Origin: a virus | Reading direction: 5' to 3' (one strand) | DNA length: 64,000 bases | IMG/VR virus record: IMGVR_UViG_3300037501_000166 | In this document: piece by piece, positions 556 through 20,474 of the stretch | How positions within the stretch are numbered: position 1 is the stretch's first letter | Layout of the letters: each line of letters starts with the position of its first letter | Program-made: the position numbers and the translations under genes | The notes under the pieces: model-generated | Database searches by the model: none | Told to the model about the DNA's origin: nothing | What the model saw: only the letters and a program-made list of their open reading frames with translations

Positions 556-562
556 GCGGAAA

Positions 563-2512: not shown

Positions 2513-2569
2513 ACGAGGTGGCGCGGCACATAGACGCCGCGCCGGGCGACCGCGCGCCCAAGCTGGGAG

Positions 2570-3508: not shown

Positions 3509-3511
3509 GCC

Positions 3512-4669
3512 ATGGCAGAAGAGAGAGAAGAAATGCCGACCAAGGCGGAGGTCAAACGGGACGCTCTCATGGTTTTAGGCGCGCCTATCCATGGTGGGCT
3601 GATCCCCCAGAACTTCGAGGCCATGTGGCGCATGGCGCAGATCATGGCGGCCAGTGGGATGATGCCCAAGGGCCTTGAGACACCCGAGGCAGTCTTCGTC
3701 GCCGTCCAGATGGGCCTGGAGGTGGGCCTTTCTCCCATGCAAGCAGTGCAGAACATCGCGGTAATTAACGGTCGGCCTTCGGTGTGGGGAGACGCGGGGC
3801 TTGCCTTAGTGGAAGCGTCGGGACTCCTGGAGGACTTCATCGAGGAGATATCGGACCATAGCGCGCGATGCGTCGCCAAGCGGAAGGGGCGCCCGAGTAC
3901 CATCGAACGGGAGTTCTCCATGGACGACGCAAGGCGAGCGGGCCTCATCGGCAAGGGGGTGTGGGCGCAGTATCCCAAGCGGATGCTCCAAATGCGCGCG
4001 CGGTGGTGGGTCCTGCGGGATGGTTTCGCGGACGTTCTTAAGGGGCTGAAGAGTGCCGAGGAAATCATGGATATGGAGGCTGATATGGGCGGGGCCTACA
4101 TCGCCAAGACGGAAACGGAACAGCGGACTGAGGAACTGAAGGAGCGGCTACAGAAGCAGCAGAGGAAGGATGCCCAACCCATCGAGGTGGACCACACCGC
4201 CCCCCCGCCCGCAAGCAACAGCCCAGGCGACTTTTCAGAAGCTGATGAGTTCTGGAACCTCAAAGCTGGCGGTTGGCTGGAATACTATCAGACCATGACA
4301 AAAGAGAAATTCGATTCATGGTCCCAGGAGACTCAACAGAAATTTCTCCGAAAGTGCAAAGTCATGTCAACGAGGGCAAACATTCCGTCGCCATGGCCGC
4401 CTACAACAACCGTGACGGTGGAGCCCGAACTGGAATCGGAGCCGGAGCCTAAGCCCACACCCGAGGTCCACAGCAGACCACCCGCCGTGATGTTGCAGGA
4501 GGAAATCCTGCGCGAAGTGTACCACATGCGGAAGACCGACCCGACGCTTTACGGTGAGATTGTAAATGGACGCAAATCGGCCGCTCTGTGGTCCCCAGCC
4601 GAATTTGAGGAGGTCCGCGCCGAGTTTTCGCGTCGATTGGATGAAAAGCTCGCGATGGAGGGCGAGTGA
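3512..4669 (+). CDS. recT: RecT-like single-strand annealing protein with long C-terminal extension
   Basis: QMGLEVGLSPMQAVQNIAVINGRPSVWGD and WAQYPKRMLQMRAR motifs; adjacent to the YqaJ gene. Confidence 0.8.
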   Translation: MAEEREEMPTKAEVKRDALMVLGAPIHGGLIPQNFEAMWRMAQIMAASGMMPKGLETPEAVFVAVQMGLEVGLSPMQAVQNIAVINGRPSVWGDAGLALVEASGLLEDFIEEISDHSARCVAKRKGRPSTIEREFSMDDARRAGLIGKGVWAQYPKRMLQMRARWWVLRDGFADVLKGLKSAEEIMDMEADMGGAYIAKTETEQRTEELKERLQKQQRKDAQPIEVDHTAPPPASNSPGDFSEADEFWNLKAGGWLEYYQTMTKEKFDSWSQETQQKFLRKCKVMSTRANIPSPWPPTTTVTVEPELESEPEPKPTPEVHSRPPAVMLQEEILREVYHMRKTDPTLYGEIVNGRKSAALWSPAEFEEVRAEFSRRLDEKLAMEGE

Positions 4670-4707
4670 TCTACTCAAGGATGTAAAGGTCATGATGGAG
4701 GTGATCC

Positions 4708-4905
4708 ATGGATGAAACGTCAGTGAGAAGGGCGCTGCTCCGGGCCACTATCCGACCGGAGGACAACCAGCCCTTGGACCATGGGAAAGAGGGCTGGTGG
4801 GACGGCTTCCTCACGGGGGCATCTCTCGTGGGCCTGGCCGTCCTGCTCTACCCAGCGTATGAGCCGTGGTTGCTCTGGCTCAGAGCGGCCCTCAGTGGGC
4901 AGTGA
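4708..4905 (+). CDS. Small membrane protein
   Basis: GGAGG RBS; hydrophobic segment FLTGASLVGLAVLLY. Confidence 0.55.
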   Translation: MDETSVRRALLRATIRPEDNQPLDHGKEGWWDGFLTGASLVGLAVLLYPAYEPWLLWLRAALSGQ

Positions 4906-4918
4906 AAGGAGGAGAAGA

Positions 4919-5314
4919 ATGTGCAACTCAGTCCATGAGAACTGGCGCGAGCCAAAGTGTCGAGATGGCAGGGGGTGGAAGTGGTGCAAAGCGAAGGATG
5001 ACAACCTTACACCTTACTATGGAAGGGCTAAGGGGTACATACACGACGTAGAAGGGTGGATAACGTGGGACGAAAAGTTAAATTGGTTGGCGTTCGGAAG
5101 GTACCCTGTTGGGTTCTGTATATTTCCCAGCAAAGTGGAAGCTCTAAGGATGCAGGTATTTGCACCAGAAGCGCGCCTTCTCCACGTAGAGTACGAAGAT
5201 GCCATTGCTATACAGTATGAGCCTAACGCAATAGATGAGCAGGTATTCGAGATCATCCTAGTCCGTCGTTGGCGGCTCATTGAGGACCAGACCAGGAGCA
5301 CTACTCATGTGTAA
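4919..5314 (+). CDS. Hypothetical protein, tandem paralogue 1
   Basis: AGGAGG RBS before ATG 4919 (MCNSVHENW...); clear similarity to the next ORF. Confidence 0.7.
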   Translation: MCNSVHENWREPKCRDGRGWKWCKAKDDNLTPYYGRAKGYIHDVEGWITWDEKLNWLAFGRYPVGFCIFPSKVEALRMQVFAPEARLLHVEYEDAIAIQYEPNAIDEQVFEIILVRRWRLIEDQTRSTTHV

Positions 5315-5744: not shown

Positions 5745-5757
5745 AAGGAGGAAAGCC

Positions 5758-6114
5758 ATGAATCCGAGCATCAGGGCCTTCGAGGCACAGATGGAAGGAG
5801 ATTGGACGCTGGAGATCCCCTGCGCCCGATGCGCGGGGGACTTCCCATTGGCCCTGGAGTTGGAGGGGGCGCCGCGACTCTGCCCGGTGTGCGCAGATCA
5901 GATCCTATTTGATGACGCGCCCTCGAAGGTGGAGCGGCGCATCCGAAGGGTCACCCACAGGCTGGAGGAGGAGAGGGCTAGACTGCTCGCTCGCGGGGAG
6001 AAACAGGCCGCCCGTATCATTACTCGGATGATCGGGGGGCTCTTCGTTTCGGCTCCCCTACCATGGCACGAGGAGGAGCCGCTCCCTGCGTTCCTCCGCA
6101 AACAAGCTGTTTAA
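5758..6114 (+). CDS. Hypothetical Zn-ribbon protein
   Basis: Two CxxC pairs; strong RBS; orthologue at 48199-48555 with mostly synonymous changes. Confidence 0.75.
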   Translation: MNPSIRAFEAQMEGDWTLEIPCARCAGDFPLALELEGAPRLCPVCADQILFDDAPSKVERRIRRVTHRLEEERARLLARGEKQAARIITRMIGGLFVSAPLPWHEEEPLPAFLRKQAV

Positions 6115-6134
6115 CAGAAGAAAGGAGGATAAGG

Positions 6135-6380
6135 ATGAGTGACTTTAGCTATGAAACATCAGGTCTGTGCCCGCGCCACGGCCGCTTCTCCTATGATGAC
6201 TCTCCTGACGGTTGCCCATGGTGCCCTCCGGAGCCAAGGTGGCTCTGTGAGACCTGCGGGGAGGATCTGGAGGAGCCCAGGACGTGCGCCTGGTGCGCGG
6301 CCTGGCTCTGCCCGGAGTGTACAGTCATGGTGGATGGCGACAGGGTGTGTCAGGAGTGCGCCTACCCAGGGAAAACTTGA
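6135..6380 (+). CDS. Small Cys-rich (Zn-finger-like) protein
   Basis: Several CxxC pairs; RBS; orthologue at 48576-48839. Confidence 0.7.
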   Translation: MSDFSYETSGLCPRHGRFSYDDSPDGCPWCPPEPRWLCETCGEDLEEPRTCAWCAAWLCPECTVMVDGDRVCQECAYPGKT

Positions 6381-6595: not shown

Positions 6596-6886
6596 CTAGG
6601 ATCTTGGCTTGAAAACAGACCTGAACCCCTCCCACAGGCCCACGGCCCCGGCCCCCGAGAAGAAACCAGCCAAGGCCGCGTCATAGGTGGCCTTGAAGGT
6701 CCACGGCTGCCCGTAATAGGGAATGGAGGACAGGCCAAGGACTATCCCGAGGATGATAGCCACAAGGGCCTTCCACCTCTCCCCGCAATTCTCGCCACAG
6801 AGCTTGAAGACCACCCCCAGGACAACTGTGAGGATGACGCTGATCCCGTATCCTCCAAGCACGATCTCCGTAGGCTGCCCTTCCAT
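6596..6886 (-). CDS. Putative holin
   Basis: 96 aa, about three hydrophobic segments, basic C-terminus, near the endolysin. Confidence 0.7.
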   Translation of the reverse strand: MEGQPTEIVLGGYGISVILTVVLGVVFKLCGENCGERWKALVAIILGIVLGLSSIPYYGQPWTFKATYDAALAGFFSGAGAVGLWEGFRSVFKPRS

Positions 6887-6888
6887 GC

Positions 6889-7485
6889 TCAGACCTCCCC
6901 CGTTGAATTGGACGGCTCAAGAAGCTCCTTCAGTCCATCCTCATCCAGAGCCGCTGTCCTTTCGTATTCCTCATCCATCCAAATATCGTAGGGGCTCAAA
7001 AGCTCGTCCGTCTCCGCGCACTTGAACGGGATGCCCATGATGTCGTGGATCTGGCCCACGTATGACGAACAAACCGTCCTATCCTTGTCACTCCAATCAT
7101 GGGTCGCCAGCCCGAGCTCCTGGGTCAAGTGGGCGATCAACTCCCACTTATCATAAGCCAACTGCTGAATCACCATCCGCTCGATCCAGTGCAGAGCAAT
7201 GGCCCACCGCCTCCTTGAGACTGAGGAGAGCCGCTTGTGCCGGCCGATCTCAATACCATACAACTCATCCGGCCTGATATCGTAGGGCGTCCAGTAGCGG
7301 GCACAGGGAGTTGTCATCTCCGTCCCCACCCAGTACCGGGCCGTCCCCTCCAGCGCCATCCTCACATGGGAAGGGCCACCGTGGGTCTGCTTGGTGATTG
7401 TCTCGGAGATGAGGCCCTTGCCCCAGGTAAGCACAATGGCCCCCTGATAGAGCTCATTTCGCAACCACTGGTAGAATTGCCTCAT
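6889..7485 (-). CDS. Permuted papain-like (YiiX/YebB-type N1pC/P60) hydrolase
   Basis: His in PSHV precedes Cys in VCSSYV, then LLSPYDI; typical permuted order. Confidence 0.7.
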   Translation of the reverse strand: MRQFYQWLRNELYQGAIVLTWGKGLISETITKQTHGGPSHVRMALEGTARYWVGTEMTTPCARYWTPYDIRPDELYGIEIGRHKRLSSVSRRRWAIALHWIERMVIQQLAYDKWELIAHLTQELGLATHDWSDKDRTVCSSYVGQIHDIMGIPFKCAETDELLSPYDIWMDEEYERTAALDEDGLKELLEPSNSTGEV

Positions 7486-7503
7486 GAGTGAGCCTCATCC
7501 CTC

Positions 7504-7842
7504 CTAGTATGAATGGCACGTCCTACACGAGATGTTGAGCATCGTGAAAGGATCCCTCTTCTGGAGATGCTTCCTATGCCCAGAATCCTTCCCCTCGGTA
7601 TCAAAGGGGCTGAAGATCAACGTCTTAGACTTGTCCTCATGGCAGGCAAGGCACAGGGGCTTCCCCTGATAGGACGTCTTCACGTTGTATTTAGCTGGGT
7701 GTGGGCATGGGGCGGGTGGAGGGCAGGCGGTGCATGTTACGGTCCCGCTCTGCCCCGGTGCGATCTCGAGCTGGGCGTAGGCGACCCCAAGCAGAAGGGC
7801 CGCCACCACCCCAAGCAAAGCCATAAAGATCATCTTCCTCAT
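7504..7842 (-). CDS. Exported protein with two CxxCH motifs (putative diheme c-type cytochrome)
   Basis: Signal peptide MRKMIFMALLGVVAALLLGVAYA/Q; CLACH and CRTCH; extra His in GHRKH; ATG overlaps the amidase TGA. Confidence 0.72.
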   Translation of the reverse strand: MRKMIFMALLGVVAALLLGVAYAQLEIAPGQSGTVTCTACPPPAPCPHPAKYNVKTSYQGKPLCLACHEDKSKTLIFSPFDTEGKDSGHRKHLQKRDPFTMLNISCRTCHSY

Positions 7843-8279
7843 AGCTCCCCCCTGAACCTGTTCATGTTGAAGTTGCGACCTGGGCACGCGGTCGGATTCC
7901 CTCCAGCCAACTCGGCATACTCCCCATGCCCGTAAACGTCCATATTCGAGAGGCCGAACAGCCTGAGCCACAGCCTCACCACCTCAAGGGCACGCCTCCA
8001 CTGATCGTCGGGCACAATGTCCTCATCCCAGTTCCCAACTACGCACAGGCCCAAGGAATCCTCGTTGAGCCCACTGATGTGCGCCCCGTTGCGGTCCCAC
8101 ATGCGGCCCATGAAGGTCTGAACCCTGTAGGGGCCGTCTCCAACCACCTCGATCCCGGCATGGTAGCCGATGGAATTCCAGCCCCGCTCCTCGACGTGAT
8201 ACCTCCAAATAGCCCCCCATGAAACCGTCCCTGAATCCTTGGTGGCTGAATGATGGATGATCACGCGCTTGGGAACCAT
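7839..8279 (-). CDS. Endolysin, N-acetylmuramoyl-L-alanine amidase (Amidase_2)
   Basis: IIHHSA, IGYHAGI, GAH...N..SLGLCVVGN, VYGHGE, TACPG motifs. Confidence 0.95.
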   Translation of the reverse strand: MVPKRVIIHHSATKDSGTVSWGAIWRYHVEERGWNSIGYHAGIEVVGDGPYRVQTFMGRMWDRNGAHISGLNEDSLGLCVVGNWDEDIVPDDQWRRALEVVRLWLRLFGLSNMDVYGHGEYAELAGGNPTACPGRNFNMNRFRGEL

Positions 8280-8653
8280 TACAGCCTCACCTCCCCCTTA
8301 TCCACCAAAGCAGGCTCCTCTTGGGCCTGACATCCCCCATCCCACAGCATCCAACCATTGGACATTTGCTTACACACCTGTCCGCCGCCAGGACGGCCTT
8401 CTGGGCCAGTTCCACCATCCGTTCCGTCTGCTCCAGATCCGCTTGTCTGACATAATGCAGGGCAGCATTCAGGCACGATACCGCCTTCGGCAGCGCATTC
8501 CTGACGATATGGGCACATTGATCGCGCATCCATCAAGGCCCTCCCTACCAGCGCTTGGAGTCTACCTTCCAGTTCAACCAACCTGCATGCCAACTCGTTT
8601 ACAAGGGTTGTCAAGGTCAATACCCGAAGGAGCAGGTCAGGGTCACTTGACAT
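8279..8653 (-). CDS. Hypothetical protein; frame ambiguous (alternative 8287-8529)
   Basis: Position within the operon; two overlapping frames are both plausible. Confidence 0.35.
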   Translation of the reverse strand: MSSDPDLLLRVLTLTTLVNELACRLVELEGRLQALVGRALMDARSMCPYRQECAAEGGIVPECCPALCQTSGSGADGTDGGTGPEGRPGGGQVCKQMSNGWMLWDGGCQAQEEPALVDKGEVRL

Positions 8654-8930
8654 TGCCGTATCTCTCCCTGATGATCCTTTCCCTCTCCGTCTCGGCGGCC
8701 ATATGAGCGAGGACGGATTTGGTCAAGTCAGTGATGGACCTCCCCTGCTCCTCCAGCTTCTCCTCGATGTTTTGGAGCCTAAGTTCGACCTTATCCAGGC
8801 AGGCGGATCGAAGCTGATTACACGCCTTCTCAGAGATCCGCCCATTGGCGAAGATGACCTTTCCCACGATGACCCCCAGCATCCCAAGGACCCCGGCCGT
8901 CAGGGTTACTTCCAATGTCGTCAGGTTCAT
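8643..8930 (-). CDS. Membrane-anchored coiled-coil protein (holin-like)
   Basis: N-terminal TM segment then heptad-like helix; upstream of the endolysin. Confidence 0.55.
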   Translation of the reverse strand: MNLTTLEVTLTAGVLGMLGVIVGKVIFANGRISEKACNQLRSACLDKVELRLQNIEEKLEEQGRSITDLTKSVLAHMAAETERERIIRERYGNVK

Positions 8931-8948: not shown

Positions 8949-11036
8949 TTAGCTGATCGTCGGCACCGGCCAGATGTAGACCTCGTTGTTCGCCTCGTAC
9001 TCGAATAGATCAATGTAGAAGGTAGCCCAGCCATCATAGGCTGACGTGAAGGTCACGGAGAGCGTCTGCGACCAATCAGTCGCTGAACTTCTCTGGCTGA
9101 TAGCCGGGGCGTTCGTTTGCGTTCCAAGGGCGGTTCCAGTGGTAAGATAGTTCGCAGTCAGAAGCAAGTTCCCAGCCGAGATTCCGGCAAAGGTAGTCTG
9201 AACCTTGAACGTTACGGTGTGGGTCCCTGCCGCGAGCCAAACCCTGAATTCGTCCAAAATCCTGAGCTTGTTATCGGCATTCAGGTTGCTTTGCAGGTTT
9301 ACCGCGCCAATCGCGTATCCATTCCCACCGGAAGGGTCCTGGCTTGGGGCGTCACCTGATCCGTTACAGGCAGTTTTGACGATATCACCAAAACTATCGA
9401 AAATGCGATGATCATCTAATGTGCCATCGTAGTTTTCAAAATATATTCTATGTTTATACCCTTGAGCATTTCGATCACCAAAGGCAAGAGGCTTGTTAAT
9501 TGATGCCCCGCTCATAAAACGAACGTATACATAGCCGCTAGATCGGAAATGAGATGTAAAGCCGTAAACAGTACCAAAAACTGTAACTGGCCCTGTATAA
9601 TAAATTGCATTGGAACCACCTATAAGAGTGCCAGTTAATATGATCTCATATCCGCCGTACAATCCATTAGAAGATCCAAGAATATTACCAGAAACTGTCA
9701 CAGACCTGCAGTTAGTAATCGCCCAAGTGCATCCAGCTAATGTTCCTGACACCACAATATTCTGCCCACTATTAAGAGCATAATCACATCCAGCGATTAC
9801 ACCGCTTACAGAGAGATTAGTAGAAGAAGCGACGGCTTGGGCACAACTGGCAAAAATGCCTTGTACTTCAACGTCGTAACCTCCATTAATTCCGACTCCA
9901 TAAACAGTTGATCCTGTCCCAGCCGTATTGACAATTTCCCCACCGAAAACACACGGAGTTCGATACGCGTTAGTGCTGAAGTCGATTATGATTTGCGACG
10001 TTCCAGTACTGTTTGACCTGATTGATACGTTTCGGCTAGATAAATAAATCCTCGCTCCAGGATTTTGGACTGAGTCAACATTTTCAGCCAAGGTAATTGA
10101 TCCAGAGGCGATAGCACTGAGTTGAGTTCGCTGCCAGTCAGCAGCTTCTGGTCCTATATCAACCAAAACCACCCGATCATGCCCATCGGTCGTGGTCCAT
10201 GGTGTATCGCTTGTGACATCCTCCAAGACGTTCATAGTGGCAGTGCTAGTGTTGGTGTGCCCACTGTAGGCTTCAATAGTCCCACTACCATCGGTGGTAA
10301 GATCAATGGCAGAACCGCCGGAGGTATAGGCAAGTTTGAACGTATCGGTGGTCGCGTTGACTACGAAATAGACCCGATCGGTCAAAAGCGGGCTTGGAAG
10401 AGATCCCCCAGAAACCCTGACAGATAAGGCAGTCCCATCCGACCAGCCATGAGAGGTCGCCGTAAGCGTGTCATTGGTTGCGGACCCCGTGACGGTCTTT
10501 TTGGTACCATAAGTGCGGACAAACCAGTTTGTGGGATGGGTAGCATACAGGGCTATATCAAGATTCGCCGCGAGTACCTTAGCAGTACCCTGAAGATCGA
10601 TGATGGCCTTGTAGGAGAAACCAAGCGCCCCAGTATTCCCCCACACCCCATCCGAATTGGCAAGAAGGCGCCCCCTGTTGGTGCTCAATGTCCCATCGAG
10701 ATTATACCCAGTGCGGATCTTGAGATACCCGGAGGCTCCATCTTTGAAATAGAGCATCCCCGGAGACGAACCGCCTTGGATCGTGACGGTGAGAAGTCCG
10801 GTGAAGGAAGACTGGTCGGCGTCCATCTGGATGGAGACACCGGAACAGATTACGACCGAGTCCCCATCCACCGGGACATAAGAGCCCGGCGTTCCTGGAG
10901 TGCAGCTCTCAGTGTCGTTCCAGACGGTCGTTGTATTGGACCACGCTCCAGACGCAACGGCGTAGCGGGTGGCCGCATCCGCGCCTGAAGCCAAGCCCAG
11001 GAGCATCCCAAGGCAGAGCAGAAACCCCTTTTTCAT
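8949..11036 (-). CDS. Large beta-helix spike/fibre-like protein with N-terminal signal peptide
   Basis: MKKGFLLCLGMLLGLASGADA/ATRY; repeated V.VSG.I.G units typical of right-handed beta-helices; Thr/Gly/Ser-rich. Confidence 0.65.
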   Translation of the reverse strand: MKKGFLLCLGMLLGLASGADAATRYAVASGAWSNTTTVWNDTESCTPGTPGSYVPVDGDSVVICSGVSIQMDADQSSFTGLLTVTIQGGSSPGMLYFKDGASGYLKIRTGYNLDGTLSTNRGRLLANSDGVWGNTGALGFSYKAIIDLQGTAKVLAANLDIALYATHPTNWFVRTYGTKKTVTGSATNDTLTATSHGWSDGTALSVRVSGGSLPSPLLTDRVYFVVNATTDTFKLAYTSGGSAIDLTTDGSGTIEAYSGHTNTSTATMNVLEDVTSDTPWTTTDGHDRVVLVDIGPEAADWQRTQLSAIASGSITLAENVDSVQNPGARIYLSSRNVSIRSNSTGTSQIIIDFSTNAYRTPCVFGGEIVNTAGTGSTVYGVGINGGYDVEVQGIFASCAQAVASSTNLSVSGVIAGCDYALNSGQNIVVSGTLAGCTWAITNCRSVTVSGNILGSSNGLYGGYEIILTGTLIGGSNAIYYTGPVTVFGTVYGFTSHFRSSGYVYVRFMSGASINKPLAFGDRNAQGYKHRIYFENYDGTLDDHRIFDSFGDIVKTACNGSGDAPSQDPSGGNGYAIGAVNLQSNLNADNKLRILDEFRVWLAAGTHTVTFKVQTTFAGISAGNLLLTANYLTTGTALGTQTNAPAISQRSSATDWSQTLSVTFTSAYDGWATFYIDLFEYEANNEVYIWPVPTIS

Positions 11037-11053
11037 GGCATCCATCCAACCCG

Positions 11054-11341
11054 TCATGGTTTGTAGTAAGTAGGCTGTCCAACTGACCATCTCAACGTTG
11101 CCTCCGCGTAGACGGGCTGGCCAATGGACCACTTCAACTCACTTGAAGTCGCATTGCCTGTCAGCATGGTCATGCTCCTACCATAGGACACGCTGCTGGG
11201 AAGGAGCCCAAGGGCGGCCAAGAGCAGGAGCTTGATCGTGTAACTAAGATATGTCTTCACCCTCTTCCCCCCTAGAAAAGGGGCCGCCCATCCCTGACTG
11301 GAGGGAAGAAGCAGGCAAAGAACGAGAAAACCCACTCTCAT
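11054..11341 (-). CDS. Small exported protein (two signal-like segments; possible internal GTG start at 11260)
   Basis: MRVGFLVLCLLLPSSQGWA and KLLLLAALGLLPSSVSYG; WSIGQP/WSVGQP repeat. Confidence 0.5.
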   Translation of the reverse strand: MRVGFLVLCLLLPSSQGWAAPFLGGKRVKTYLSYTIKLLLLAALGLLPSSVSYGRSMTMLTGNATSSELKWSIGQPVYAEATLRWSVGQPTYYKP

Positions 11342-12198
11342 TTGTTACTCACCTCAATCTGAACTTCAGGGACGCCCGATGAGGTGGAGTCGGCAGCTAC
11401 AAGCATATACAAGGCCGAATCCTCATAGACCTGGATCATTCCCGTCCTGGTTAGATTGTGGACATCCCCTGCCCCAGCCGAAGGGACGCGCCCGGTCCAC
11501 AAGGGCCGAAGGACCATCACGTTGAAAGTCCCAGCCGTAGCAACCGTCCCCCTGACACGATCTATCCGCTGAATGCCATAGTCCCCTGCAGCAAGGGGGA
11601 TCTGAACACACCTGCCAACGGTCAGGGCGGCCCCTCCGCTCACCACGCCCGTATCCCCAGCATTCCCATCCTGATCGAGATAGTTAATCTGGAAGCTGGG
11701 AGTCCCCGTGAAGGCGGTCACGGCCTCGACCCAGAGCTGGAGTCCACCGTAGCCGCTCCCTGGAACACGGGAGGAATAAGAAGGCTGAGAGGCAAGGGTC
11801 GTATCAGCGTTGTAGGTATAGGCCCCAGCGGCGAAGAGGCGGTCATAGAGGGTGAGCCTGCACGCCACCGTGCTTCCGTAAAGAACCCTCGTGATGTATC
11901 CAGTCGCCCCTCCACCGAAGGCGTTGATGACTGGGTAGCCCGTAGTCGCATCGGTGGGGACCGTCCCGGCGGCGGTGTTGCCGATGGCCAGCGTTCCAGC
12001 CCCCGGGTTGCCCGCTAAGTCGAAGACGGTAAAGTTGATGGCCGCTACCGTGGTCCTGGTTCCAGTCTTGCACCACGTAAAAAGCTGCTTATTGGAACCG
12101 ATGTAGTCATCTAAAGACGTTATAGCAGCAAGACAAGGGACTGCCAAAACTATAATACCGACTACTATAAAAGGCCACCTTCTTCTCATCTGTCCCAC
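11338..12198 (-). CDS. Virion-structural-like beta protein with signal peptide
   Basis: MRRRWPFIVVGIIVLAVPCLA/AITSLDD; Thr/Gly/Ala-rich beta-strand pattern. Confidence 0.65.
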   Translation of the reverse strand: MGQMRRRWPFIVVGIIVLAVPCLAAITSLDDYIGSNKQLFTWCKTGTRTTVAAINFTVFDLAGNPGAGTLAIGNTAAGTVPTDATTGYPVINAFGGGATGYITRVLYGSTVACRLTLYDRLFAAGAYTYNADTTLASQPSYSSRVPGSGYGGLQLWVEAVTAFTGTPSFQINYLDQDGNAGDTGVVSGGAALTVGRCVQIPLAAGDYGIQRIDRVRGTVATAGTFNVMVLRPLWTGRVPSAGAGDVHNLTRTGMIQVYEDSALYMLVAADSTSSGVPEVQIEVSNK

Positions 12199-12425
12199 TC
12201 CTCAAGCATTCTCACTGCGTCATCAAGCAGGAAGGAAGTTACAGATCCTCCCATCCAGGACGACGCGGACCAGTGTGCCACAACAGCATTCCACGCCGGA
12301 GTAGTGGTTTCACCTCCACTTGTAGTCGAAAAGGTAGCAACCAGAACGACGCTCGTCCTGGCTCCAGCGCATGGAGTCAAAGCAAGCAAACCGGCAAGGA
12401 TCAGAAGACCCAAACGGGCTATCAT
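12186..12425 (-). CDS. Small exported protein
   Basis: MIARLGLLILAGLLALTPCAGA/ signal peptide. Confidence 0.55.
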   Translation of the reverse strand: MIARLGLLILAGLLALTPCAGARTSVVLVATFSTTSGGETTTPAWNAVVAHWSASSWMGGSVTSFLLDDAVRMLEEWDR

Positions 12426-12426
12426 A

Positions 12427-13623
12427 TCAACTCCCCGGCGTCCATGTTCCCCTTCGCCCCATGGAATGCCAGTTGGTGGAATCTATGGCAATAAAACAGA
12501 TGTAGTCTCCATCGGCGGCCCCACCTGAGATCTGATGCCCCGCTGTATCAGCCGTCCCATCGTAGACGAGCACATCCGAATCGTCTGGGTTGATAATAAC
12601 CGCGGCGGCAGTGGGGACAAGCATGCAGAAGCTCATACCCGCAGCAGCGGCAGGCAGGTTCCACGTCCCCGCCCCAGTGGCCACAAAGAGCGTCCCATAC
12701 ATGCCAGTACTTCCAGGCCCAGCCGCCGTCATCTCGGCCTGGGACATCCCGTTGGAGTCGGAGTTGATGTTGATGGCACCAAGGATATTCCCTGTCGTTA
12801 CAAGGTTCAAAGAGCCCCAGTTGATACTTGTGACCCCTGAATCACTCGATACGGCAACCTCGTTATCCGTGGCCGTGTCGAAGTCCCACAGGAGTCTTTC
12901 CTTCCCAGCCACCGCAGCGGCGGGTGGAGAGGCATCCGTGGAGACGCCCATGACGAGGACGGAATCAGAGGCGTCCCACTGAATCCAGGACTGCTCAGTC
13001 CCACCATCAAAGTAGGTAAGCCACATATCGGAGACTTCGGCATTCTCCGTCGTGGTGGACATATCAGCCTTGATGGAGCCCGCATCCTCATCGGCATCAG
13101 CGGCTCCGGCGGCATCACTATCTCGCAGAAGGACCTCTGGGGTGGCCCCCCTAAAGGCCACATTCAGGCTGGACTTGCATTCGAGGGCATCCCCAGCCGC
13201 GTTGACTCCGATGATCTGATTGGCGGCCGTGCAGGCAAGCACGGAGAACGCATCCGCCCCGGTCCCCTGGATGATGCTCACATCCGCAATGGTGAGGCCA
13301 GCAAGGGCCGTTAGGGTGGCGTCAGCAGACTGATAGCTTGTATCAGTCAGAGTGCTGCATCCCCCCATGACCCCACTGCCATCTATACAGACAACCTTGG
13401 ATGACGCTATCCCATGGGCCTTGGTGATGGTATTGGCAAGGGTGGCTTTCTTGTTTACCGGTGTTCCGCCCGGGTCGTCCACTGTCATGACCAAATCGTC
13501 GGACGTGGGCGCGGTATCAGCAGTTAAACCGGTTACCTTCGTATCGGCTCCGTACGCTGTTCCTCCCACAATCAAAAATATCAGCAGTGGAAATAACCAC
13601 CATTTTTGTTGTCTTTTGATCAT
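12427..13623 (-). CDS. Tail-fibre-like protein with signal peptide
   Basis: MIKRQQKWWLFPLLIFLIVGGTAYG/ADTKVTGL; C-terminal LPAAAAG...STNW domain resembles the repeats in the tail fibre at 14436-15605. Confidence 0.7.
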   Translation of the reverse strand: MIKRQQKWWLFPLLIFLIVGGTAYGADTKVTGLTADTAPTSDDLVMTVDDPGGTPVNKKATLANTITKAHGIASSKVVCIDGSGVMGGCSTLTDTSYQSADATLTALAGLTIADVSIIQGTGADAFSVLACTAANQIIGVNAAGDALECKSSLNVAFRGATPEVLLRDSDAAGAADADEDAGSIKADMSTTTENAEVSDMWLTYFDGGTEQSWIQWDASDSVLVMGVSTDASPPAAAVAGKERLLWDFDTATDNEVAVSSDSGVTSINWGSLNLVTTGNILGAININSDSNGMSQAEMTAAGPGSTGMYGTLFVATGAGTWNLPAAAAGMSFCMLVPTAAAVIINPDDSDVLVYDGTADTAGHQISGGAADGDYICFIAIDSTNWHSMGRRGTWTPGS

Positions 13624-13628
13624 GACTT

Positions 13629-13853
13629 TTACTCCAAAAGAAGATAATCGCCTGTCTCCAAAAGGACAAAGTCCGAATTTATCTCTAAGACAAGGCCATC
13701 ACCAACAGCAGGCCCTCCACCGCCGCCACCACTTCCATTGGTCAATCTATCCTTGACTGCGCTACCGATTATTTTTGAAGGGAAAGGGCCGCCATAAGAA
13801 TATGTCGCCGCCAAAAGCAAGATAAACGCCGTCAAGAGAATCAATCGAAACAT
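13629..13853 (-). CDS. Small exported protein ending LLETGDYLLLE
   Basis: MFRLILLTAFILLLAATYSYG/ signal peptide; Gly linker; acidic-hydrophobic C-terminal motif. Confidence 0.65.
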   Translation of the reverse strand: MFRLILLTAFILLLAATYSYGGPFPSKIIGSAVKDRLTNGSGGGGGGPAVGDGLVLEINSDFVLLETGDYLLLE

Positions 13854-13860
13854 AGTTCAC

Positions 13861-14196
13861 CTATTTGTGATAAATGATTGCCGATGCATTGGTCCCAGTA
13901 ATATCGAGATAGATACCGGTAGAACACCTGATGGGATGCATGTAAACAATTCCGCCATAGTGATTGGCAGCTGGCACTTTCACATAGACAAGGACTGTTC
14001 CGGATGCCGTCGTGTTGTCGTACAGAATGGCAGCTGCGTCGTTTGATCCGTCCGTATAGACCTCGATACCACACAGTTGAGTTCTACCCGTAATAATGCT
14101 GCCATCCGAAGTCTTTGCTCCCGAACTTATACATTGCGCATGGACCGTCCCAGCCAACCCGAGAATGATAAAGATAAATGCCAGTTTCTTCCACAT
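13861..14196 (-). CDS. Small exported beta protein (decoration-like)
   Basis: MWKKLAFIFIILGLAGTVHA/Q signal peptide; GGAGG RBS. Confidence 0.7.
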   Translation of the reverse strand: MWKKLAFIFIILGLAGTVHAQCISSGAKTSDGSIITGRTQLCGIEVYTDGSNDAAAILYDNTTASGTVLVYVKVPAANHYGGIVYMHPIRCSTGIYLDITGTNASAIIYHK

Positions 14197-14209: not shown

Positions 14210-14434
14210 CTACGGATTAAGGATATTTGCTATTGTTACCCAATTCTCCGGATGATCCATGAGCGCTCCTCGAATCTGCACGTAGAGGTCCAAATTGTTA
14301 GCATTGTATTTCTCGGTAAGATCCGCTGCAATATAATTTTGAAGAAACAACGCCTTGGCCTGTCCAGCCCTTTTTGAAAGAAACTCCAGGGCAATATCCT
14401 GCTGAACGGTTGTCGTGATGGTGTACGTCGGCAT
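14210..14434 (-). CDS. Putative tail-fibre assembly chaperone
   Basis: Small helical ORF right after the tail fibre gene; AGGAG RBS before MPTY. Confidence 0.45.
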   Translation of the reverse strand: MPTYTITTTVQQDIALEFLSKRAGQAKALFLQNYIAADLTEKYNANNLDLYVQIRGALMDHPENWVTIANILNP

Positions 14435-14435: not shown

Positions 14436-15605
14436 TCATGCTCTCCTGACAACCAAGCTAATGTAGTTACAGACAATCGTGTCGGCTGAATTGGCGCATT
14501 CGCCGGTGATCTTCACTGTGATTGACCCGGAAGTGATATCATCGCTTCCGCTTCCAAGAACGCAGAAAGCGGTATTATTCGTATTTACGCCTAAAGATAC
14601 TGTCTTGTGCGAGTTCGTGGCACTCAAATAAGTTGTAATCCTGTGTACGCTATCGTATGCCGGCGTAGCCACATCTCGAATTGTAATGTTCGTTGCCCCG
14701 AAATAGTACTTAAGCGTTTTGTTTCCATTGGCGTTCTGATAATCAATGTTCACATCGGCTTCAAGCACGTCGCCGATTCGGAGTGAATTTGCCGGGAAAG
14801 TGAAAGTCGCGATTACGTCTTCACCTGTTCCGCTTGTGGTTCCCGTAGCGATTTGCGTGGGAATGTACTCGCTGACAATCACCCAGTTCGACCCATTGGA
14901 TTCGATCTCGATTGACTGGCCTTTCACAAAGAACACATAAGTGGTCTGCGTTCCGCCTGGCCTGGCGATTGTCTCCGAAGCGTTCGGGTCCACCGTGATG
15001 GTATTCGTCACATCCGTCGCTATGATGGTAAGCCGCCGACCGGCCCCTGCCGTCGCTGCCGCCCGAAGATTTACAGTCACGGCCCCGGAGGCTCCAGAAC
15101 ATTCCAAAATGTCATCGTACTTGGTTTCTGAATACGTCTCGTTGGAAAGAGCCCTTCTGGTCGGTCTCGGTTTCCTGTGCCCGAGGATGTGCCAGTTAGA
15201 CCCGTCACAGTAAAGCAGCAGACTTTCCTTGGCCACGCTGAAAACAAAGTTTGTGTCCCCGTCGATGGTTTCCGATCCGGAACCATCAATGATGATTCCG
15301 TAATCGAGATCGATGCTCTTGATCAGGCAAAGATAACCAGCCCCGGCTGTCGCTGCCGCGAGAAGGGTATATGTCGTCGCGGCTCCAGGGTCTATCTCGA
15401 TAATGACATCCCCGTTGCTCATGCTCGATGTGCCGGTCACAGTTGCCCTTTTGGTTGCGACAGGGAATATGTTTCCAGGAGTAGTCCCGTCCCACACGCA
15501 GAAATTGTCAATGATAGACTTGAGATGAGAGAAATTATTGCGCATGTTGGTAAGATCGTTACTTATCTGATTCGCCGCTGTCGGGACTGAGTCCGTCCAA
15601 GCCAT
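14436..15605 (-). CDS. Tail fibre (no signal peptide) with two tandem internal repeats
   Basis: N-terminal adaptor-like helix; repeats L.AAATAGAG...SETI...GSNW.I occur twice. Confidence 0.75.
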   Translation of the reverse strand: MAWTDSVPTAANQISNDLTNMRNNFSHLKSIIDNFCVWDGTTPGNIFPVATKRATVTGTSSMSNGDVIIEIDPGAATTYTLLAAATAGAGYLCLIKSIDLDYGIIIDGSGSETIDGDTNFVFSVAKESLLLYCDGSNWHILGHRKPRPTRRALSNETYSETKYDDILECSGASGAVTVNLRAAATAGAGRRLTIIATDVTNTITVDPNASETIARPGGTQTTYVFFVKGQSIEIESNGSNWVIVSEYIPTQIATGTTSGTGEDVIATFTFPANSLRIGDVLEADVNIDYQNANGNKTLKYYFGATNITIRDVATPAYDSVHRITTYLSATNSHKTVSLGVNTNNTAFCVLGSGSDDITSGSITVKITGECANSADTIVCNYISLVVRRA

Positions 15606-15610: not shown

Positions 15611-17635
15611 TTACTCCTCTTTCGTGTCTTTCATGAAAGACAAGTCGCCAGTCACGTTATTTCGGCCGGCAATAGTAACAAGTCTTGACGCGATTCTGAC
15701 CGCTTCCGGCGTTGTCGGGTTAGTAGTCAGGCCCCTCGCAAGCATAGCCATTCCGGCCTTGGATGCATAAATCTTGGCGAGACCTTTTGTGCTGATAAGA
15801 ACAGCCCCGCCTGCCAAAAGTGCCCCTTGCGTGGCTTCGCCGATATCCCGTTCTCCGAAAACGGCCGCGGCCATGGGGCTGATGATCGCCCCCGATTGAA
15901 CCAACTGAACGACGAGCCCGCCGCCAAGTTTTGTGGGTCGTTCCTGAATCAGCTCAAGGGTTCTGGCGATGTTATTGATGGATTGCAGTTCATCTTTTGA
16001 AAACATCTTTTCAAGATTGTAATCACCAACCTTATTCAGCTGAGTATTAAGCTTACGCCATGAGATATTCCCTTGAGGCGTCACGCTTTGGACGTGTATG
16101 ATATCGTTCAACCAATGCGCTTTCAGATCCTGAAAAACATCATGAGGCAATATCTGTTTCAGATGATTGATGCGCCTTGAACCAATCTCACTCGTCATGT
16201 ACTTGGCTACTGAATCTGGATATTCTTTGGATAACGCCGTCAACAATTTGTCGTTATATATCTCAATCCCTTCCTTGTAAAACTTGTTGGCTTCTCGCCA
16301 AGCCAAGACCGCTTGCGGATCAAGCGAATTACCTTCGGTCTCCATGACCTCATCGATTTTGTTTGCCAATTTCTTGGCTATGCCAGCATCGCGGCCAGGG
16401 ACAAGGGCATTGGGGCGGTAGCCGACTTTATAAAGAGACGCGCGTTCCTGCTGCAAGAACCTCCACGGCAGTTCAGCGGGCCAACCAAGAATTTTTTGAA
16501 GCGTATTGATGCTGACATTCATCCCGGTGATCTGAGCTTTGCCCTTGATGACGGCCCCTGTATTTGGATCAACCTTTTTCCACTTGTAGACCAAATCATT
16601 AAGCAACTGCTTCGCCGAATCTTTGATGCGTCGGGTCGAAACGCCTTTTTGAGCTATGCCGTCAAGCTGTGCATAGTTAGCTCTAGCGGCAGTCATGAAT
16701 GAGTCAAGACCTCTTTCCGCCGCATCCTGGATAGCCGTTCCCAAAACATGCGGGTCTCCGGTGTTACCTATGGCCCGAATGGTTTGATTTACCATTCGAT
16801 CGATGACTTCCCTGCCTTGACCTTTTTCAACGACATCGCCGATGGTTTGGGCGCCACCCCAAGAGCCTTCCAGAAAATTCTGAAGAACCCAAAGCCCTCG
16901 ACTTCTGGAGATTTGAGCTGGCAGAAATCTCCCGCCGAATTGTTTGAAGTTTTGAATGATCGCCTCGGCTTTGGGCGTGATTTTAGGTTCTATCGGCTTG
17001 GCAACCATACGGCCCAGCTTTTCGCCAAGCATCCCACCCGCAACCGCAATCCCTGTTTCGACTGGAGTTGGACGATAGAACGCCCCAGTCAATGCGTTGG
17101 CAACGCCGCGTTTCAGATATTGCCCCGCCGCCGTTCCGGCCCCAGCTCCTACTATGGTCCCTAAACCAGGCTTGACCAAAGATCCGCCCATGGCCCCCAG
17201 AGTTTGCAACGCTGTTTCAGGAACTTCTCCGAACCAATCCCCGAAATCCTGGAGGGTCGCCTTGCGCTCATCAACCAAAGTCCACTTTTTCGATTCAGGA
17301 TTCAAATAAACCAGATCACCAGTCTCAGCCCGGCCAGCAGCATAACCATGTTTTTTGAGAAACCCGACCCGTTCTGCCGGATCATCGATATAACTCAATG
17401 CTATCCTCATGAACGGATTGGACATTCCCGATTCGGTGTCGATATTCGGCCCCAAATCCCTTATCAAATCGCCTCTCGTAGCTGCGGAGTGGACATTGAT
17501 TTGACGCTTCAATTCATCCAACTTGCCGGTATCTACAACCGTCTCTTTCAGCTTCAATACGGGATGGTTCGGCGTTTGTTCCTCACTGATTCTCCGCCGG
17601 ATCATGTTTTGCAGTTCATCAAGTTCATTAGGCAT
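15611..17635 (-). CDS. Large DNA ejection / internal virion protein
   Basis: 674 aa helical protein with Gly/Ala-rich hydrophobic segments; podovirus gene order. Confidence 0.7.
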   Translation of the reverse strand: MPNELDELQNMIRRRISEEQTPNHPVLKLKETVVDTGKLDELKRQINVHSAATRGDLIRDLGPNIDTESGMSNPFMRIALSYIDDPAERVGFLKKHGYAAGRAETGDLVYLNPESKKWTLVDERKATLQDFGDWFGEVPETALQTLGAMGGSLVKPGLGTIVGAGAGTAAGQYLKRGVANALTGAFYRPTPVETGIAVAGGMLGEKLGRMVAKPIEPKITPKAEAIIQNFKQFGGRFLPAQISRSRGLWVLQNFLEGSWGGAQTIGDVVEKGQGREVIDRMVNQTIRAIGNTGDPHVLGTAIQDAAERGLDSFMTAARANYAQLDGIAQKGVSTRRIKDSAKQLLNDLVYKWKKVDPNTGAVIKGKAQITGMNVSINTLQKILGWPAELPWRFLQQERASLYKVGYRPNALVPGRDAGIAKKLANKIDEVMETEGNSLDPQAVLAWREANKFYKEGIEIYNDKLLTALSKEYPDSVAKYMTSEIGSRRINHLKQILPHDVFQDLKAHWLNDIIHVQSVTPQGNISWRKLNTQLNKVGDYNLEKMFSKDELQSINNIARTLELIQERPTKLGGGLVVQLVQSGAIISPMAAAVFGERDIGEATQGALLAGGAVLISTKGLAKIYASKAGMAMLARGLTTNPTTPEAVRIASRLVTIAGRNNVTGDLSFMKDTKEE

Positions 17636-18996
17636 TAGAATTGCCCCGATTTAGCGGATTCAATGATCTGGTCGTAAATCCTAAGTTGGGCTTTCGCCGC
17701 CTCATCGTCTCGATTCAGAAGCGCCGTTATTCTCGGTTCAAGTATGTCGGCAAGTTCGTTGGGAGTAAGAACGAATTGAGAAAGGGGATGTTTATCGTAG
17801 ATTCCCTCTCTGTCTTTTTCCAACATATCCGCCTTGATCAAACCTCTTCTCAACAAAGCCTCGTTACGCTTGAAGATCGCCATGGTTCGCCACAAAGTAC
17901 GCGCCATAGCTCCCTCAAACCGCGATTGCCCCATGTCGGGGTTTGGAAAAACAGGAAGGATAAACTTGTTCAATTCTCCGTACGAACTGGCGGCTCCGGT
18001 TACCTCCTTCCTGTAGCTATTGAAATCAGTCATGACACTGGTATCGAAAGCCTGTTTGCGCGTAAGGAATTGGCTCGCCCCCGGGCCAACAGCGACTCCC
18101 ATCTTCTCGGCATAATTGCCCAGGGCGGCTTGAGTCTTTCCGCTGAATGTCAAGAAATCAGGATCATAAAGATCCACTGTCGATATCAGTCCGCTCAAAC
18201 GCTCATGCGATGAGAGCAAATCCTTTTCCAGGTCGGTCTTGGTCGTTTTTTCCATACCCAACATATTCGACACATTCACAGTGGTCACGTTTTTTTGAAC
18301 GATTCCATGCTGAGGAGGCAACGGCTGGCCGACAATATGATACTTCTGCGTCCCGGGGATAGGCTCTCCTTTCTGATTCAATTCAGCGATAATGTCATAT
18401 GACTGTCTCTGTGACGCATTTTTGAACTCGCTTGGAGTCAACGGCGGCAATCCCTGCTTCGCACGGAGAGTGTTCTCGATGCTCCACATCTGCAATTCAG
18501 CAGGAGGCTGTTGAGGAGCGAACGTTTTTGGAGGTCCCTTGGCGATGAGATTGCCTGTCTCGTCAAGAAGAACCTGATTTTCGCCGAGTGTATGAACCTT
18601 TTTCGGCTCAGGCTTAATGATCTGGAACGTCTTGCCGAGTTGAACGCCCTTATACCCCGGTATGCCGATATCGAAAATACTGGGTCTTTCGCCGGGTTCC
18701 TTTGCCTTGTACCATGTCTTATCGCCCAGCTTGATGGTTTGAATCTGCCTTTTCTTCTCTGGATCGGCCAAATCTTCCGGGGTATATCCGGCATCATCAG
18801 GAGAATCCGTGAAACCGTGAACGGCCATTTCCCGCTCAAGTTTTCTAACATCCTGCTGTTCTTGCAGCTTGGCTTGCATCTCAAGCTGTTTCATCTGCAT
18901 ATTCTGTTGAATCGCCATCATAGCTCCACGGGTCAGCATTTCAAGAAACGGGTTCTGCGGAGCACTTATTACAATCGGCGTAGGTCCGAGAGGCAT
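17635..18996 (-). CDS. DNA ejection / internal virion protein
   Basis: Gln/Met-rich N-terminus; position in the ejection cluster. Confidence 0.65.
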   Translation of the reverse strand: MPLGPTPIVISAPQNPFLEMLTRGAMMAIQQNMQMKQLEMQAKLQEQQDVRKLEREMAVHGFTDSPDDAGYTPEDLADPEKKRQIQTIKLGDKTWYKAKEPGERPSIFDIGIPGYKGVQLGKTFQIIKPEPKKVHTLGENQVLLDETGNLIAKGPPKTFAPQQPPAELQMWSIENTLRAKQGLPPLTPSEFKNASQRQSYDIIAELNQKGEPIPGTQKYHIVGQPLPPQHGIVQKNVTTVNVSNMLGMEKTTKTDLEKDLLSSHERLSGLISTVDLYDPDFLTFSGKTQAALGNYAEKMGVAVGPGASQFLTRKQAFDTSVMTDFNSYRKEVTGAASSYGELNKFILPVFPNPDMGQSRFEGAMARTLWRTMAIFKRNEALLRRGLIKADMLEKDREGIYDKHPLSQFVLTPNELADILEPRITALLNRDDEAAKAQLRIYDQIIESAKSGQF

Positions 18997-19011
18997 CTTT
19001 CATCACCCCCC

Positions 19012-19707
19012 TTAGAAAATCTTTCCAGCAAGCCAATCGCCAGCCTTGCTTCCAACACTGCCCAAAAACGATCCAGCCGCCCCGCCAAGCATTCCCATCC
19101 ACGGGTTCGGTTGTTGCTGCTGAACGATGGGATAGCTCAATCCCAGGCCGGCAAGCCCGCTTAATGATTGCCATGGCCATGTCCGCTGCTGCAATTGATT
19201 CCCGTATTGTTGCATGAGGGCCTGCCAGCCCGCCTGCGCCGTATCGGCACGCTTCGCGAGCTCTCCTTTCCATCCGGCCTGAAGTGCCGGCGATATCATG
19301 TTCCATCCGGCCATGGCCATCTGTGGGGCCGCTTCCTTAGCCCAGTACTCCGCTCCGGCCCTCCCGAAGGCGCCACTGGCCCCTCCCCGGGCGCTGCCAG
19401 CCATACCCTTTGAACCGAACTGTTCGAAAAGTTGCTTTTGCCCCTCCAGAAACGGAGCCATGATGCCTTGCCGTACGTTTGCGTCCAGGCTTCCCCACCA
19501 ATCCCCTTGAGGCATCATGCTCTTGATATCCGGAATCTCGTAGGAGGGGAATTCGGGCAACGCGGGCAGGCTCCATAAAGGTTCCTCGGTTCGGAAAAAT
19601 CCCTTGTACCTTCTGAAGGCAGGCTTCATCGCGTTCCAAATCGCCCGCTGTTGAGGAGATTGAACAAACTGAGTGTTGAGATCGGTTCCCCCGCCTCCGG
19701 CCATCAC
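19012..19707 (-). CDS. Small DNA ejection (pilot-like) protein
   Basis: MAGGGG start; Gly/Ala/Gln-rich; C-terminal MLGGAAGSFLG segment. Confidence 0.7.
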   Translation of the reverse strand: MMAGGGGTDLNTQFVQSPQQRAIWNAMKPAFRRYKGFFRTEEPLWSLPALPEFPSYEIPDIKSMMPQGDWWGSLDANVRQGIMAPFLEGQKQLFEQFGSKGMAGSARGGASGAFGRAGAEYWAKEAAPQMAMAGWNMISPALQAGWKGELAKRADTAQAGWQALMQQYGNQLQQRTWPWQSLSGLAGLGLSYPIVQQQQPNPWMGMLGGAAGSFLGSVGSKAGDWLAGKIF

Positions 19708-20210: not shown

Positions 20211-20219
20211 GACAACTCC

Positions 20220-20474
20220 TTATGGCTCTATGGCGATTTGCTGTGCAGCTCCAGTCGGGAACCGCGCCGCAAGCTGCGTTTTTCCGCCGGATTCCACGGC
20301 ATACACCCTCACCCTGTTTGTGCCCGGCGCCGAGGGGGCTGTGCCGCTTTCCGGAATTTCGATAAAATCACACTCAAGATGTCGTATATACCTGAGCTTT
20401 TCGACAAGGGCCAACAGCCACTTGTCCAGTTCAGCATCCCCGGTTTTCGGAGGGGCGTCGATCTGCATCACCAT
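20220..20474 (-). CDS. Small tail-associated protein
   Basis: Between the hub and GNAT genes; PSAPGTNRVRVYA motif. Confidence 0.55.
   Translation of the reverse strand: MVMQIDAPPKTGDAELDKWLLALVEKLRYIRHLECDFIEIPESGTAPSAPGTNRVRVYAVESGGKTQLAARFPTGAAQQIAIEP

Follow-up and report, generated by a model that had tools for sequence, protein, structure and literature searches.

Seven consecutive late genes with Sec-type leaders in an SU10-like podophage: secondary addition of leaders to structural-type proteins and a possible periplasmic route to the virion

We describe a block of seven consecutive genes at positions 8949-14196 of the IMG/VR virus record IMGVR_UViG_3300037501_000166, a single stretch of 64,000 nucleotides (nt), hereafter the window, whose minus strand carries an SU10-like podophage. 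The genes, designated A to G from upstream to downstream, are tightly packed late genes of the minus strand that lie between the tail genes and a lysis cassette, and all seven encode proteins with predicted Sec-type leaders. A preliminary description of the window had assigned such leaders to six or more consecutive open reading frames (ORFs), with the ORF at 11054 as a probable member of the series; in the present analysis the series comprises seven ORFs, with the cleavage sites proposed at that time, and the 11054 product presents a GWA/A leader that scores within the range of the others.

Leader calls and the seven proteins

Leaders were called by one crude home-made rule combined with comparative evidence, the window being represented by approximately 90 greedy ORFs. 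Each of the seven proteins begins with a basic n-region (1-3 residues) and a hydrophobic core of 10-17 residues, followed by small residues at positions -3 and -1 of the predicted cleavage site (from A to G: VHA/Q, SYG/G, AYG/A, AGA/R, CLA/A, GWA/A and ADA/A, the slash marking the cut); n-region, core, -3/-1 residues and cut position are those of Sec substrates of signal peptidase I in all seven cases. Shine-Dalgarno-like sequences precede the starts of the block genes. Under the rule the block proteins score 4.9-6.2, and only 8 of the roughly 90 ORFs reach 4.9, namely the contiguous seven and a cytochrome-like gene at 7504-7842, all others scoring 3.9 or less. The upstream tail fibre-like gene (14436-15605), previously described as leaderless, is leaderless by the same rule, as are all core tail, head and internal proteins. 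Since the rule flags only about 5% of genes in unrelated leaderless phage loci (7/144 neighbour genes), seven leaders in a row are far above chance.

Other kinds of N-terminal signal were not found in the seven leaders. A lipobox is absent, as the motifs LTPC in D and AVPC in E hold a proline before the cysteine and the other five proteins have no cysteine at the junction; homologues of E align from the alanine two residues past its cysteine. The twin-arginine translocation (Tat) consensus is absent as well, consecutive arginines occurring only in E (MRRRW), whose core is very hydrophobic, and a relative of E (P0038) has a Lys-type leader. Features of signal-arrest-release (SAR) sequences are also absent, the cores being rich in Leu, Ile, Phe and Val (mean Kyte-Doolittle values of 2.6-3.2) with AxA-type sites next to them. 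The case that the true starts lie downstream of the hydrophobic segments, which had been named as one that would overturn the leader calls, finds no counterpart in the sequence, where no Met, Val or Leu start is present at the junctions.

Protein A (111 amino acids, aa; 13861-14196) combines a 20-aa leader with a small beta-sandwich body of about 91 aa and belongs to a phage-only family. It matches phrog_28102 (E=3e-6) and is 33% identical to a leader-bearing 132-aa protein in a block of another locus (L001); its Atlas neighbours are viral clusters, of which those of 89-96 aa align from residue 21/22, suggesting, as a lead only, that leaderless forms of A exist. Protein B (74 aa; 13629-13853) consists of a 21-aa leader, a Gly-rich linker and a short acidic C-terminus, with no family match in Pfam or PHROGs, and protein D (79 aa; 12186-12425) of a 22-aa leader and a Ser/Thr-rich body, the end of its gene overlapping the start of E by 4 nt.

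Protein C (398 aa; 12427-13623) is a mosaic fibre in which a 25-aa leader is followed by a unit at residues 26-70, here called the ADTK unit, a shared middle part and a C-terminal domain (residues 242-398); the middle and C-terminal parts occur in other proteins in differing combinations. The ADTK unit spans about 45 residues, with K4, L8, D11, P14, L19, P26, P30, K34, T36 and N39 conserved, and C matches the corresponding profile with E=2.8e-21 over residues 26-80, the domain beginning at residue 26. A resemblance between the C-terminal domain of C and the repeats of the upstream 389-aa fibre-like protein had been proposed; neither BLASTP nor hhalign finds it significant, and what survives of it is a weak likeness over the C-terminal 85 residues of C, with Smith-Waterman z values of 4.5 and 3.95 against shuffled sequences.

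Protein E (283 aa; 11338-12189) starts at the ATG of MRRRW and comprises a 21-aa leader and a jelly-roll beta-sandwich. No family can be named for it because its model (predicted local distance difference test, pLDDT, 78.6) is a generic jelly-roll with a best Z of 6.4. A distant relative (28% identity) is encoded by gene 13 of Rhodobacter phage RcGingersnap (L009). The ATG of gene F (95 aa; 11054-11341) overlaps the stop codon of E; beyond the leader, F presents a second hydrophobic segment, itself leader-like, and then two WS(I/V)GQP(V/T)Y repeats, and to judge from its sequence the protein may be membrane-anchored instead of soluble.

Protein G (695 aa; 8949-11036) begins at MKKGF, 17 nt past the stop codon of F, and not at the upstream GTG of the ORF reaching 11132 nor at the start of a 713-aa gene call. 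Its 21-aa leader precedes, in a model with pLDDT 92.2, a right-handed beta-helix and then a CBM4-like C-terminal sandwich domain. The best Foldseek matches are phage depolymerases, and in this model G has the beta-helix fold of tailspikes and polysaccharide depolymerases. The matched tailspike depolymerases include those of Klebsiella phage P560 (7vul), a K1 lyase (7w1c), LKA1 gp49 (4ru4) and AP22 gp54 (4y9v), with E values of 8e-8 to 1e-5 and probabilities of 0.9-1.0, at global TM-scores of 0.13-0.18 and about 10% identity. Unlike these tailspikes, G has no separate N-terminal particle-binding domain, none being visible in the secondary-structure string of the model. Solved tailspikes, moreover, are not known to carry a signal peptide, unlike G.

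Reference collections contributed little to these assignments. Matches to Pfam and PHROGs were nearly absent, both for the seven proteins and for their relatives without leaders, and tblastn against approximately 50,000 cultured or deposited phages gave no match for A, C or G and only hypothetical proteins for E and the ADTK unit. Sequence searches of the PDB with C and the ADTK profile produced nothing real, and IMG/VR single-protein scans yielded nothing for C, G or a 674-aa neighbour, as did a metagenome scan for the latter.

Exact junctions, repeated gains and cysteines

The preliminary description had pointed to Met-initiated starts of uncultured-phage structural proteins (MADTK and MAIT starts) and proposed that the leaders were added secondarily. 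The homologues bear this proposal out and extend it to G. In the otherwise undescribed ADTK family, whose profile matched 3817 cluster representatives, 118 of the best 150 start with Met followed by the unit from residue 2, and 21-22 carry a leader whose predicted cut falls directly before the unit, with no linker and without retention of the Met; in the remaining 10 the unit lies deeper in the protein or forms tandem repeats. Homologues of E number 2488 at E<=0.001, mostly of 261-263 aa and 65-74% identical, and their Atlas clusters are 93-98% viral; among the best 120, 118 begin M-A-I-T/S (M-AITSLD-like) at residue 22 of E, right after CLA, and leaders occur only on E itself and on P0038. 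For G (best 120 of 230 listed), 104 proteins begin M-A-T, the closest (53% identity) with M-ATRYAVASG, and 16 are leader-bearing, with the cut just before ATRYAV or ATITSN.

In the leader-bearing proteins the -1 residue of the predicted site thus stands where the homologues have their Met, and because no start codon is found there, no alternative cytoplasmic form can arise from the junction. Leaderless homologue genes begin only 2-26 nt after the preceding gene, which leaves no room for a hidden leader. These alignments confirm, at the level of sequence, that leaders were added secondarily to phage structural-type proteins in three families; the homologues being phage proteins, the alternative that they are host periplasmic proteins, also raised beforehand as a refuting case, did not hold. 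As the predicted cut in every case yields the same N-terminus as Met removal does in the cytoplasmic form, it probably does occur, and the free N-terminus would matter to the protein.

Giant proteins of 764-2581 aa (P0157, P0198 and P0261) hold 11-21 tandem ADTK-like units, and the unit is therefore a repeatable fibre building block, more than an N-terminal cap. In a metagenome contig (L051, upstream of 1003-1134) an ADTK-type protein departs from the zero-linker rule: its leader is of the lipoprotein type, ending in LVGC, and some 25 linker residues precede the unit.

Leaderless orthologues belong to the same families (an ADTK fibre in L006, E in L007 and L008, G in P0297 and L012), with identities up to 53-74%, and share the mature N-termini; they sit in structural modules of podo- and siphophages, the ADTK member occupying the fibre position of another SU10-like phage (L006). 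They differ in their direct Met start and in that none of their neighbours is leader-bearing. Leaderless E and G homologues are often located in head modules of siphophages, and by this comparison some block proteins may belong to the head or neck, as appendages, and not to the tail.

The history of the leader was followed in a maximum likelihood tree calculated from 117 rows of mature G sequence, N-truncated rows being excluded, in which the leader state needs at least four changes and leader-bearing proteins form four separate clades nested among leaderless ones; G is a mosaic protein, and recombination may blur this count. Leaders also occur in blocks. The L001 locus presents ten consecutive leader genes before its lysis cassette, including homologues of A and C and two proteins with true lipoboxes (lipoproteins), while leader genes number three in L004, 5/6 in L010 and three in L011, and zero around the leaderless homologues of L006, L007, L008 and L012. 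Within four genes of a G homologue, 11/24 neighbours bear leaders where G is leader-bearing versus 7/144 where it is leaderless (Fisher p = 8e-7; three leader-bearing loci versus 21 leaderless). A single conserved cassette of C, E and G was considered and rejected, as the 29 loci with a G homologue hold the ADTK unit once and E never. The block pattern is therefore a property of the phage and not of a cassette; on this gene-content evidence, the unit that switches appears to be the outer kit of a given phage, whichever families compose it.

Regarding cysteines, pairs had been noticed earlier in several block proteins, and C indeed holds six cysteines in three covarying pairs and G eight. In leader-bearing fibres the Cys content is roughly double that of leaderless fibres and the counts are mostly even (homologues of C, 19/23 versus 3/13; ADTK proteins, 17/23 versus 35/127). 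The pair 333/376 in the C-terminal domain of C is Cys-Cys in 14 of 16 homologues and lost at both positions in the other two, and the pair 131/149 is either Cys-Cys or Ser-Phe. A gain of cysteines in all leader-bearing families was rejected, since it is seen in the fibres only, not in G or E. Oxidative folding of at least the fibre C outside the cytoplasm is inferred from these Cys patterns. Taken with the exact junctions, the repeated gains and the block occurrence, the even, covarying fibre cysteines support real export indirectly, and we consider it likely that the block proteins are exported by Sec and cleaved.

A possible route to the particle and its rivals

Tailed-phage assembly is, in the textbook view, wholly cytoplasmic. 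The best explanation of the sequence comparisons would be that the block products, namely the mosaic fibre C, the jelly-roll protein E, the tailspike-like beta-helix protein G with its sugar-binding end and the small partners A, B, D and F, were all converted from cytoplasmic to Sec-exported forms. Gene packing shows that the block is expressed late, together with the virion and lysis genes; host Sec would then export the proteins across the inner membrane, where signal peptidase I would cut the leaders, and at least the fibre C would form disulfide bonds outside the cytoplasm. The proteins would wait in the periplasm until lysis, when holin and endolysin (an amidase) open the envelope and allow them to meet DNA-filled, tail-bearing particles, so that the last assembly step of the particle would occur outside the cytoplasm. 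Even if the first three steps are granted, this fourth one seems to us somewhat more likely to fail than to hold, and the whole chain, in which exported peripheral structural-type proteins join virions at lysis, is given a probability of about 0.38.

Cellulophaga phage phi10:1 (NC_021802.1) offers the nearest precedent. Its gp091-gp094 are consecutive leader genes between tail genes and genes for small transmembrane (TM), lysis-type proteins, with cuts predicted by the same rule at SA/Q, FG/Q or LS/F, SA/Q and NA/Q, and the record names the products structural protein, virion structural protein, pectate lyase and tail fiber, 'based on experimental MS/MS proteomics analysis' (tandem mass spectrometry). 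A fibre and pectate-lyase-type beta-helix enzymes are among these leader-bearing genes, whose layout matches that of the block; phi10:1 differs in being a siphovirus of a Bacteroidota host whose leaders follow the habit of Gln at +1, and its proteins have no sequence similarity to those of the window. To our knowledge, the phi10:1 leaders have not been discussed in print. The meeting with the particle gains weight because these leader-bearing proteins are annotated as virion proteins by MS/MS; by analogy, virion association of leader-bearing proteins is plausible, which does not prove the route.

Other systems share parts of this arrangement. The pIII and pVIII coat proteins of filamentous Ff phages are made with cleavable leaders, and after insertion or export by the host machinery they enter the virion outside the cytoplasm; Ff phages, which lack a preformed head and tail, leave by extrusion through the envelope and not by lysis, whereas the tailed, HK97-fold podovirus of the window is assembled in the cytoplasm. 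Bdellovibrio bacteriovorus reportedly has mosaic adhesive trimer (MAT) fibres, phage-fibre-like proteins that bear secretion signals and function beyond the cytoplasm; these are chromosomal genes of a predatory bacterium, for display on its own surface, and not part of a phage late operon. Spanins, SAR endolysins and the T5 Llp protein are late or early phage products, use host Sec and are encoded near lysis genes, but they are small lysis or exclusion factors and not homologues of fibres or tailspikes. In Porphyromonas phages, signal peptides have been described on capsid, spanin and unknown genes, tail parts being unmentioned (Matrishin et al., 2023; PMC10367356). Our literature searches retrieved no description of signal peptides on tail fibres of tailed phages.

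That the proteins are exported but never enter the particle, acting instead on the envelope of the infected cell or as free proteins, enzymes or decoys after lysis, is in our judgement the main rival and only somewhat less likely than the chain above. Within this explanation, G and C, working from the periplasm, would remove or cover receptors and surface polysaccharide, thereby preventing superinfection and the trapping of progeny on debris. The genuine appearance of the leaders agrees with it, as do the resemblance of G to polysaccharide depolymerases and its CBM4-like end; the block adjoins the lysis cassette, a neighbourhood in which exported phage proteins, spanins for example, are usual, and the three-gene leader block of L004 stands at the end of the late region beside an integrase, a classic site of conversion genes. 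Exclusion factors such as T5 Llp are exported, and no docking partner on the virion was identified. A free enzyme or decoy, on the other hand, would not need mature N-termini that are kept to the residue in three families and across repeated gains of the leader; the phage encodes no leaderless duplicate of C, E or G that could supply its particle, the block genes are translationally coupled to virion genes rather than set apart like a moron, and the leader-bearing counterparts of phi10:1 were detected in virions. Surface display, for its part, would require a passage through the outer membrane, of which the sequences give no hint.

It is improbable, again in our estimate, that the hydrophobic N-termini stay uncleaved as membrane anchors, cytoplasmic-side tethers or SAR-like anchors, or that the starts were mis-called. 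The home-made rule behind the leader calls leaves some room for this, the two hydrophobic segments of F may make it a membrane protein, the gene caller picked another start for G, and the RRR at the start of E superficially recalls Tat signals. Against it stand the junctions, where no Met, Val or Leu start exists and the Met of homologues corresponds to the -1 residue, and the cores, which are rich in Leu, Ile and Phe, 10-17 residues long and followed by AxA-type sites, not Gly/Ala-rich as in SAR sequences, with neither Tat motif nor lipobox; selection for a cut at the old N-terminus is sensible only if the cut occurs, and Cys parity and covariation point to an oxidising compartment. Very improbable is a moron, that is, independently acquired cargo encoding periplasmic proteins of host origin, which a prophage would express to the advantage of its lysogen and which would have no part in phage structure. 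The site between tail and lysis genes is a common one for cargo, and the nearby cytochrome-like gene is a candidate for such cargo; yet the homologues of the block are overwhelmingly viral and stand in structural modules, and neither integrase nor repressor was found in the phage unit that carries it. Intergenic gaps are tight (-4 to +18 nt) from the internal-protein genes through the holin, and promoter-like and terminator-like matches around the block stay at the chance level of shuffled sequences, so that the block belongs to the late operon and was not inserted as a unit of its own. The GC content of the block (0.47-0.58) and its GC at third codon positions (GC3) are like those of neighbouring genes; with no promoter or terminator of its own, neighbour-like GC and viral homologues, the block does not have the marks of a moron (lysogenic conversion).

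Several points weigh against exported structural-type proteins that join virions at lysis. The leader calls depend on a home-made rule, and the block statistics on few leader-bearing loci, the compared proteins being related to one another. We know of no route by which periplasmic proteins enter tailed-phage particles made in the cytoplasm, and proteins that join after lysis would do so against dilution. For the C, E and G families a virion role is deduced only from gene position and fold, none having a cultured characterised member, and the occurrence of ADTK as an internal tandem repeat in giant proteins means that a role as virion anchor is not proven; in Rhodobacter phages the relative of E lies among replication genes (DNA polymerase, nuclease, ribonucleotide reductase). 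Leader-bearing members of the G and E families have no Cys excess. Finally, phi10:1 is unrelated to the window phage, and the mass spectrometric detection of its proteins could reflect lysate proteins that co-purify.

A broader form of the same proposal is that a widespread class of tailed phages, infecting several host phyla, exports its whole outer host-recognition kit of fibres, tailspike enzymes, decoration proteins and small partners through host Sec, folds and disulfide-bonds it in the periplasm and docks it when the envelope opens, the switch having happened many times and having kept the mature N-terminus to the residue on each occasion; this we hold to be doubtful, and less probable than the chain proposed for the window phage. 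The present work adds quantified exact junctions in three large families, repeated gains on a tree and a case outside the typical Bacteroidota setting. If the fibres and tailspikes of many environmental phages do mature in the periplasm, annotation of receptor-binding proteins would change, since at present a leader often leads to a gene being set aside as cargo from the host; their expression for structural work or engineered host ranges would need oxidative folding and a processed N-terminus, and the view of how final assembly steps are coupled to lysis would change as well. The exact-junction pattern is a simple marker, readable from sequence only, of cytoplasmic-to-exported switches, and it supplies exported orthologues together with their cytoplasmic counterparts, with which the question can be put to direct test; the Cellulophaga phages already offer leader-bearing virion proteins in culture.

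Phage unit, host and neighbouring genes

The phage unit that carries the block was delineated on the minus strand by a Pfam scan, which identified the SU10 major capsid protein at 27690-28883 (PF17236, E=9.6e-40), the SU10 portal at 30068-31999 and the SU10 adaptor at 22087-22845 (PF23899, E=1e-23, and PF24175, E=7.7e-12, respectively), and the large terminase subunit at 32881-34413. With this capsid protein, portal and adaptor, the phage is an SU10-like (Kuravirus-type) podophage. Its leaderless virion module (15611-34413, minus strand) comprises internal proteins, a nozzle-like 543-aa protein that follows the adaptor and is assigned by PHROGs to virion structural proteins, the adaptor itself, a Maf-like/radical-SAM cassette, capsid, portal and terminase. 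The cassette (23359-27680, minus strand), between the capsid and adaptor genes, encodes two MptE/Maf-like proteins and a radical-SAM/SPASM protein and may serve virion glycosylation.

Downstream, the last leaderless gene of the tail module encodes the 389-aa fibre-like protein (14436-15605, minus strand), with two tandem repeats of about 90 residues each (Smith-Waterman z = 16.8 between them), both closing with a DGSNW-like motif. A leaderless 74-aa protein (14210-14434, minus strand) is encoded between this gene and the leader block. Directly downstream of the block, in the same operon, the lysis-type cassette (6596-8930, minus strand) encodes a 95-aa protein with one TM segment and a coiled coil, a 124-aa Cys-rich protein, a leaderless Amidase_2 endolysin, a leader-bearing diheme cytochrome-like protein, a 198-aa protein and a 96-aa multi-TM holin-like protein. 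The 124-aa protein (8279-8653, minus strand), located between the TM/coiled-coil protein and the amidase, has a coiled-coil start and eight cysteines, including a CC and several CxxxC-like spacings, and gave no family match. The cytochrome-like protein (7504-7842, minus strand; 112 aa) has a signal peptide (AYA/Q) and two CxxCH motifs, its gene overlaps the end of the amidase gene, and its nearest Atlas clusters are NrfB-like small cytochromes.

The host is likely a diderm outside the Bacteroidota. The block leaders use AxA-type sites throughout and not the Gln habit of Bacteroidota, and the cytochrome-like gene points loosely to diderm phyla. No transfer RNA genes were found in the window. 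An IS21-type element (IstA with an rve domain, and the IstB ATPase) lies inside the phage unit at 37406-39402 (minus strand); its partial relatives in metagenome-assembled genomes of Desulfarculaceae and Dehalococcoidia are a weak hint to the host.

The record is a metagenome assembly. Since the block (8949-14196) recurs with 99.9-100% identity on contigs of two other samples, it is real DNA and no assembly artefact. Bases 1-5301 recur at 42508-47808 with 99.96% identity, and this repeated 5.3-kb block, which holds a YqaJ-type exonuclease and a methyltransferase-like gene among others, is followed by a patch of 93.5% identity between 5747-6349 and 48188-48790. Two different phage units are joined through the 5.3-kb repeat, the second of them encoding a fusion of uracil-DNA glycosylase and PolA (UDG-PolA) and large leaderless minus-strand proteins of its own.

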